Assembly: GCA_964016885.1 (NCBI GenBank)
Contig: OZ024743.1
Coordinates: forward strand, 109,244,001-109,308,000
Origin: Eledone cirrhosa
Taxonomy: Eukaryota
Direction: 5' to 3'
DNA: 64,000 nucleotides
Translations under genes and position numbers: made by a program
Part shown: one piece after another, positions 16,958 through 17,600 of the stretch
Numbering within the stretch: the stretch's first letter is position 1
How the letters are laid out: each line of letters starts with the position of its first letter
The notes under the pieces: generated by a model
Seen by the model: the letters and a program-made list of their open reading frames with translations, nothing else
Database searches by the model: none
What the model was told of the DNA's origin: nothing

Positions 16958-17162
16958 GCTCTATCTCAAAATTATTTTTGAAAAGCATTTAGAAATGCGC
17001 AACCGGTAAAAACTTAAAACCACAACTGAATACTAACCAATACAATTACTAATACTCTTTTATTCCTAATTAAACTATTTTTCAACTGTGACCAATTTAT
17101 CAGCATTTTCTATTCCGTTTACCAATATATAATAACTTGTGTGTTACACCTCTATTCTTTTA
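16958..17162 (+). mobile_element. PLE pLTR-like repeat, family A, copy 1 (atypical HHR at ~16975-17012)
   Basis: Homologous to 17401-17600 and 44600-44802; ends in (TA)n. Confidence 0.7.
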
Positions 17163-17262
17163 GGTATATATATATATATATATATATATATATATATATA
17201 TATATATATATATATATATATATATATATATATATATATATATATATATATATATATATATA

Positions 17263-17600
17263 TTAGTAAAAGGAAAAGAAAATGCTGACAAATGTTTCCC
17301 GGTGAAAAATAGTTTAATTAGGAATAAGTATAAATTAGTAATAAGTATTGTTTAGTAATCACTTTTAGTTTTAAGTTTTTACCGGTTGCGAATTTCTAAT
17401 GCTATCTCAAAATTATTTTTGAGAAGCGTTAGAAATTCGCAACCGGTTAACATTTAAAAATAAAAGTGAATACTAACCAATACTTATTACTAATTTATAC
17501 TTATTCCTAATTAAACTATTTTTCACCGGGAAACATTTGTCTGCATTTTCTTTTCCTTTTACTGATATATCATACTCGTATGTTACACCTCTATTTTTTT
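17263..17600 (+). mobile_element. Family A fold-back (~150 bp arms centred near 17413) plus tail
   Basis: 17263-17410 is the reverse complement of 17416-17563; (TA)n on both sides. Confidence 0.85.

Follow-up and report, generated by a model that had tools for sequence, protein, structure and literature searches.

A young Penelope-like element (PLE) family in the genome of Eledone cirrhosa, here called family A, carries in its pseudo-LTR a motif with the layout of a minimal hammerhead ribozyme, in which the 3-8 pair is U3-A8 and the core nucleotide A13 is replaced by C. The motif is almost certainly a hammerhead homologue residing in a PLE, and C13 is very probably both fixed and derived. Judging from sequence comparison, a natural A13C fixed in about 12,000 copies would be the new part; U3-A8 is not, as this pair has been published for PLE pseudo-LTRs and other natural hammerheads. 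We lean slightly towards a ribozyme with attenuated activity: cutting after GUA would be slow and likely limited to dimers or to RNA helped by the element's protein, and insertion of the element is likely independent of the cut.

Motif copies and their surroundings in the window

The analysed DNA is a stretch of 64,000 nucleotides of contig OZ024743.1 (hereafter, the window). The three motifs that an earlier note on this DNA had located are confirmed (Table 1). Read from the letters, copy 1 is TTGAAAA GCATTTAGAAATGC GCAA CCGG TA with U3 at 16978, copy 2 is TTGAGAA GCGTTAGAAATTC GCAA CCGG TT with U3 at 17419 and copy 3 is TTGAAAA GCATAAGAAATGC GCAA CCGG TA with U3 at 44620. A fourth copy, GCAACCGGT at 17389 on the minus strand, had been overlooked; it lies in the inverted arm of a fold-back insertion (17257-17424), which keeps stem II and GCAA-CCGG-UA (G12 at 17389), the CUGANGA-equivalent half of its core being a fold-back chimera. 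Two alternative registers were rejected: if the GAAA in loop II is taken for G12-A15.1, stem II disappears, and if the C is taken for an insertion after G12, A15.1-U16.1 is lost. The motif of family C, another repeat family, has a long stem II.

Table 1. Features of the window related to the family A motif
Feature	Position	Strand	Evidence or remark
Solo pseudo-LTR/3' end of a family A Penelope-like element (A2-type)	16935..17162	+	93% to young full-length element over 236 nt
Predicted competing hairpin UCAAAA/UUUUGA, U3-A6 paired with upstream sequence	16966..16981	+	minimum-free-energy folds
Minimal hammerhead-type motif, copy 1	16975..17011	+	sequence, pattern matches, alignment, covariation
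Copy 1, stem I	16975-16977/17009-17011	+	
Copy 1, U3-A9	16978-16984	+	followed by stem II, 16985-16998
Copy 1, G12-C13-A14-A15.1	16999-17002	+	C13 = 17000
Copy 1, CCGG, then U16.1 and A17	U16.1 17007, A17 17008	+	predicted cut after 17008, inferred from hammerhead numbering
(TA)n microsatellite separating two family A insertions	17165..17256	.	sequence
Inverted 5'-truncated arm of fold-back insertion, without tail	17257..17424	-	pattern matches, end-point listing (L001)
Forward arm of fold-back insertion (A1-type), with tail	17402..17603	+	motif 17416-17451, C13 = 17440
Fold-back centre, hairpin TCTCAAAA-TTAT-TTTTGAGA	17405..17424	.	sequence, folding
Older, longer 5'-truncated copy, 3' UTR and pseudo-LTR, A3-type	43982..44812	+	motif 44617-44652, C13 = 44641
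U3-A8 hammerhead-type motif with canonical A13, family C (other repeat family)	54482..54516	-	in-window comparison

The element end that holds copy 1 has a 33-nt tail followed by a (TA)n run. Stem I of family A consists of three U-A pairs only, and minimum-free-energy folds predict that the strand upstream pairs with the core, as had been proposed, hiding U3-A6 in the competing hairpin; the segment forming this hairpin is invariant in the majority sequences of four family A subfamilies. An Rfam scan of the window (E<=5) gave no hammerhead match, returning only low-complexity miRNA-like matches, including MIR6288 on the fold-back hairpin, below the gathering score.

Differences between copies had been assigned to tolerant positions of the hammerhead. 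This is correct for the core letters; in stem II, by contrast, the copy at 17419 has a C10.2 x U11.2 mismatch. This mismatch, G7 and U17 are private to the forward arm of the fold-back. The differences at N7 and H17 therefore say nothing on selection, as they belong to one copy, in which G7 perfects the local fold-back hairpin. The loop of this hairpin occupies 17413-17416, and the 147-nt stretch around the fold-back centre folds at -79.3 kcal/mol (z -18). The proposal that the core hairpin is the fold-back centre stands at this locus but not generally: in 9 out of 12 head-to-head pairs the centre lies 70-81 nt upstream of the predicted cut, and the window's centre, about 34 nt upstream, is atypical among the 12.

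Other repeats surround these insertions. The region 17707-17900, past the (TA)n at the right end of the fold-back, resembles the flank of locus L015, contains a CTGACGA..GAAA match at 17833 (minus) and is probably another (TA)n-inserted repeat. Five further large fold-back or inverted repeats (49083-50546, 46146-47189, 30308-32896, 45632-45895 and 59505-59797) are possibly other head-to-head insertions, and three long stop-free frames (20387-22264, minus, 626 aa; 11336-12376, plus, 347 aa; 29776-30762, plus, 329 aa) are likely other transposon remnants.

The host element, its sister families and C13 across the genome

Copies of family A represent the pseudo-LTR of a Penelope-like retrotransposon 4.7 kb long, with an RT, a Cys linker and GIY-YIG, which targets (TA)n and gives rise to head-to-head fold-backs in a genome of 3.0 Gb. 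In longer copies, the motif is preceded upstream by about 1 kb of 3' UTR and then by the GIY-YIG frame. At RT-centred loci, units are about 4.7-4.8 kb long and run from a motif and tail through ORF1 and the 784-aa RT-linker-EN frame to the 3' UTR and a second motif. The 784-aa frame matches RVT_1 (E 4e-7) and GIY-YIG (E 2e-6), both above the curated Pfam cut-off, and shows the RT followed by a C-terminal GIY-YIG endonuclease of EN+ PLEs; a PDB sequence search with it returned 0 matches. Upstream of GIY-YIG, the linker reads C-X4-C-X2-C, in agreement with the CX2-5CxxC feature tied to Neptune and Nematis (PMC8557442). Relative to the predicted cut, copy ends recur at two downstream points, +122 and +155 nt, adjoining (TA)n, and inverted arms mostly take the shorter end (+122). 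Pseudo-LTRs derived from partial tandems, inverted 5'-truncated copies and an optional tail in the 30-40-nt range all occur; the optional tail and the inverted pseudo-LTR are known from PLEs (PMC8557442, PMC3846280). The A2 subfamily is young: among 10 comparisons of RT-EN, 8 show 0-9 differences over 1752 nt and one shows 21, the tenth (L170, 943 differences) being out of register and set aside. The RT-EN frame led us to reject a Helitron or MITE, and a non-LTR retrozyme, with its short non-coding head-to-tail units of ~170-400 nt, does not match a 4.7-kb coding element.

Full-length A and B elements have an ORF1 of 436 aa in A and ~400 aa in B (L175:5856-7190; L220 around 4654). It overlaps the RT-EN frame by -1, and a U_UUU_UUA heptamer lies in the ORF1 frame in both families. 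The overlap is likely a programmed -1 frameshift; no strong hairpin downstream of the heptamer was predicted in A. A frameshifted ORF1 is mentioned for PLEs in the legend to Fig. 1 of PMC8557442. Separately, family A units in rearranged form, about 3.9 kb long and each carrying an RT fragment in inverted orientation, are arrayed in tandem at L177-L179 (G000:C2:359512000-359538000).

The combined pattern TTGANAAN{8,22}GCAACCGGT (UUGANAA..GCAA-CCGG-U) has 12,593 matches in the genome, compared with 13 for the reversed control; 96 of the 100 C13-pattern matches listed belong to family A by eye. A tighter family A pattern with any base other than C at position 13 has 138 matches genome-wide and, by eye among the 100 matches listed, these carry 35 A, 13 G and 52 T, a decay-like spectrum. 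Since the two patterns differ in strictness, the resulting share of about 99% C13 (about 1% non-C13) is approximate. Across all U3-A8 families, G13 or U13 gave 327 matches (control 180). C13 was present in 31 out of 31 family A motifs at 20 loci around RT-bearing young copies. In two contig read runs of undefined kind, where RNA ends are not visible, no other base appeared at position 13 at a 10% threshold. Given the 12,593 versus 138 counts and the 31 motifs beside young ORF-bearing copies, sequence comparison indicates that A13C is the master sequence and not decay. A canonical CUGANGA/GAAA consensus, which the earlier note had named as the sign of decay products, is not what family A has. 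Family A lacks the core letter A13, and we have not filed its motif as an active hammerhead because it fails the strict core consensus at that position.

With GAAA in place of GCAA, the pattern has 23,478 matches (control 54), spread over several families whose stems differ. Three of these are sisters of A by their RT-EN proteins (E, 66% identity; D, 57%; B, 56%), and all three are U3-A8 with A13, the family B loci having been picked by their EN DNA and not by the motif. Family B is collinear with A: 26 of 30 motif positions are identical, against 0.64 of positions upstream and 0.49 downstream. In an unrooted RT-EN tree restricted to families of the Eledone genome, A groups with E and B with D; the outgroup is a long branch that gives no reliable root, and 3 of the 5 inner branches are weakly resolved. 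The derivation of C13 consequently rests on parsimony and the general consensus, which would place its origin on the family A branch.

Covariation was assessed in 13 motifs chosen by eye to represent the families, found through the core pattern and forming related rows. Pairing cells reached 84.6% against 61.5 +/- 3.3 in shuffled alignments, stems I and II had two-sided changes at 6 of 6 pairs, and the covariation score was 0.561, compared with 0.156 for shuffled and at most 0.146 for slid alignments. Two pair-count measures were not significant (64 of 500 and 53 of 500 shuffles). Family A combines stems I and II around the core, G10.1-C11.1, covariation and a location in the pLTR, with a stem I of three U-A pairs only and a Watson-Crick 3-8 pair, U3-A8, that is a published covariant. 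The U3-A8/A13 sister families and the covarying stems I and II carry both the homology with hammerheads and the likely derived state of C13. The hammerhead reading and numbering of the earlier note are backed by the sister-family collinearity and the stem covariation. Also supported are the U3-A8 pair and the C at position 13 that it described, its palindrome in stem III, the weakness of stem I and the link to Penelope elements. Its U3-A8 swap is not novel, being known from the Cercyon PLEs of Schistosoma and occurring with A13 in the 23,478 Eledone matches.

In family E motifs at L104, L106 and L112, stem II begins with U10.1, which faces U or A; U3 occurs with G8 in one motif of L112. Canonical C3-G8 motifs have 19,129 matches (control 321), mostly in 310-bp arrays, with A13 in 100 out of 100 among the matches listed. 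These arrays, a family separate from A, include L200-L219 (G000:C1:1239858 onward), where tandem arrays in mirror image are built of 310-bp units that carry a canonical CUGANGA hammerhead and look like retrozymes.

Constraint on the motif and its capacity to cut

If the motif had merely followed its surroundings, it should be no better conserved than its flanks, a possibility that the earlier note had raised against its own reading. Between the majority sequences of A1 (33 copies) and A2 (29 copies), however, 0 of 36 motif positions are substituted, compared with 22 of 153 flank sites (p=0.007), and the single motif indel lies in loop II. The comparison of A2 with A4 (6 copies) gave p=0.028 and that of A1 with A4 p=0.27. 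With all four subfamilies, including an A3 set of 21 copies partly chosen for non-C13, there was 1 change in 36 motif positions, in loop II, against 24 in 154 flank positions (p=0.028, or 0.066 with a 6-nt flank block counted as one event). U4, G5, A6, A9, G12, A14, A15.1-U16.1, H17 and G10.1-C11.1 are kept in the four subfamily majorities, where only loop II changes. Between two ORFs, 51 of 686 third codon positions are different. Neutral divergence may therefore be as low as 6-10%, and at 6% the conservation of the motif has p=0.15. The 16-nt stretch upstream of the motif is equally invariant. This amounts to moderate evidence that the motif has been better conserved than its flanks after A13C, and suggests that the family A fold is still under constraint.

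Published mutants and natural variants bear on the activity to be expected. A13 belongs to the strict core consensus (PMC3088659), and its mutants are described as inhibited 10-100-fold and not beyond 100-fold, a milder effect than at C3, G5, G8, G12, A14 or A15.1 (PMC4075628, citing Nelson and Uhlenbeck). Single natural core changes can leave low activity, which is low but detectable for A6C or U15.1-A16.1 (PMC3088659). Even when the core is normal, minimal hammerheads of PLEs have weak activity (PMC4209133), so lowering it another 10-100-fold may leave none. Folding predicts a pairing probability of about 0 for stem I at 2.1-1.1 in A, compared with 0.33 in B. Two copies are predicted to cofold through the ACCGGU palindrome (15.2-16.2), forming a 6-bp intermolecular helix with stem II kept. 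We put the chance of measurable cleavage under favourable in vitro conditions at roughly even.

As fossil marks of cutting, 5' junctions were scored in copies that have no CCGG while retaining what lies 3' of the predicted cut. A1 gave 122 matches; by eye, the first 100 listed contained about 60 junctions, of which about 19 fell no more than 2 nt from the cut, a mild excess located where a T-run ends and counts are inflated by microhomology. A2 gave 294 matches; of 30 loci examined, 8 were intact and 5 of 22 junctions were no more than 2 nt from the cut. Clusters just as large occurred where other T-runs end, and no peak marked the predicted cut. In family B, which has A13, the searches returned 161 and 333 matches; by eye, the 100 matches listed comprise 20, 13 and 16 junctions at the cut, -1 and -2, 13, 10, 11 and 14 at four downstream positions, and 3 intact copies. 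No clear 5'-junction peak at the predicted cut was found in A1, A2 or family B, and, as the A13 family is also without one, this proxy cannot separate a live from a dead ribozyme. The junctions suggest that cut RNA is not the main template in A or B.

How the motif came to be kept can be read in several ways. It may have been catalytically dead since A13C, with its fold kept for a non-catalytic role in the pseudo-LTR such as dimerisation through ACCGGU, protein binding or a promoter or DNA-level signal, which we regard as rather unlikely. Several changes between A and B would fit it, since C13, the weaker stem I (UUU/AAA instead of CCUU/AAGG) and the 6-bp upstream hairpin over U3-A6 all shift together; invariance reaches 16 nt beyond the motif on its upstream side, no junction peak marks the cut site, and Naiad PLEs proliferate without canonical hammerheads (PMC8557442). 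The A13 sister family, however, is equally without a junction peak, and the subfamily majorities retain the other core letters, G10.1-C11.1, A15.1-U16.1 and H17, with loop II alone changing. We consider it improbable that A13C was fixed by drift in one master copy, killing a ribozyme whose remaining letters are too recent to have decayed. At 6-10% neutral divergence, 0 changes in 31 structured positions has a probability of 0.04-0.15, and one subfamily pair (A2 versus the others) carries most of the conservation signal, which leaves room for drift; yet within one and the same pseudo-LTR 22 of 153 flank sites have changed and no motif site has, and the changes that did occur are confined to loop II.

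That the motif is not derived from a hammerhead at all, being a chance look-alike in AT-rich sequence or a hairpin that terminates some DNA or rolling-circle element, is hardly credible, even with no Rfam hammerhead match: it is collinear with the canonical-GAAA motifs of sister families, its stems covary and it flanks an RT and GIY-YIG frame, so that the GAAA-pattern counts, RT-centred loci and covariation largely refute this origin. A stronger form of the attenuated-ribozyme reading is that C13 with U3-A8 makes a working, deliberately slow ribozyme, selected in a spreading retrotransposon and gated by the upstream hairpin, dimerisation or an element protein; this we hold only tentatively, at somewhat less than even chances.

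For the attenuated ribozyme that we favour, the element would be transcribed from or through a pseudo-LTR, and its protein would bind the RNA and nick (TA)n. Reverse transcription would begin downstream of the predicted cut, at +122 and +155 nt, mostly on uncut RNA, as reported for the Poseidon element PAc, and these two start sites would produce tailed and tail-less arms and fold-backs. The hammerhead would then serve as a slow processing site, gated by dimerisation or protein, with residual cleavage; transcripts of tandem units may bring two motifs together.

Implications and relation to known systems

These observations touch on the question of why PLEs keep hammerheads. The Eledone genome offers a natural paired test: a young C13 family exists beside close A13 sisters, the motif holds the same place in the pseudo-LTR, and coding copies are close to intact. 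Cutting by the C13 form would mean that the core consensus accepts a change held to be disqualifying and that descriptor searches undercount such motifs. If it works as a slow ribozyme, the accepted core consensus widens, and GAAA-based searches miss whole high-copy families. If it does not cut, more than 12,000 copies were reached without a working ribozyme, which would support the finding that cleavage is dispensable for insertion in vitro.

The closest parallel for the motif is found in the pLTRs of Cercyon PLEs of Schistosoma mansoni, where U3-A8 minimal hammerheads have ~1,300 matches in Schistosoma (Cervera and de la Peña 2014, PMC4209133). Cercyon and family A share a type I minimal motif in a PLE pseudo-LTR, U3-A8, a short stem I and a palindromic 15.2-16.2, and most copies are solo or on opposite strands. 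Family A differs in having C13 for A13, no unpaired base between A9 and G10.1, a shorter stem II (5 bp) and fixation in about 12,000 copies of one young family. Among natural core variants, the U3-A8 covariation is shared with family A (Perreault et al. 2011, PMC3088659); the text on core variation in that paper gives the insertion U13a and no substitution at position 13, unlike the C13 of family A. The full-text literature searched, which also took in PMC7229834, PMC6155905, PMC11014351, PMC6962438, PMC6765202, PMC9901934 and bioRxiv 10.64898/2026.07.22.740005, contained no natural position-13 substitution; the main survey of PLE variants (Lunse et al. 2017), figures and supplement file 1 of PMC4209133 lie outside this scope.

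As to the element, PAc of Anolis, a Poseidon PLE, has a hammerhead that depends on the element's protein and that insertion in vitro can do without (Frangieh et al. 2024, PMC11167929). Like family A, it has two RT start points that yield an optional 30-40-nt tail (33 nt in family A), AT-rich targets and a pLTR hammerhead, with no sign of cut RNA as the main template. Unlike family A, PAc belongs to Penelope/Poseidon and has a C3-G8 core overlapping the ORF start, whereas the family A element has a Cys linker and a separate ORF1. Family A also resembles Neptune/Nematis-type EN+ PLEs, with which it shares the RT, CX2-5CxxC linker, C-terminal GIY-YIG and partial tandems (Craig et al. 2021, PMC8557442; Arkhipova et al. 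2013, PMC3846280), as well as inverted 5'-truncated copies with a palindromic junction, the tail, (TA)n targets and an optional frameshifted ORF1. This likeness is one of element features, and the Neptune and Nematis clades are described with canonical hammerheads, unlike the C13 motif of family A.
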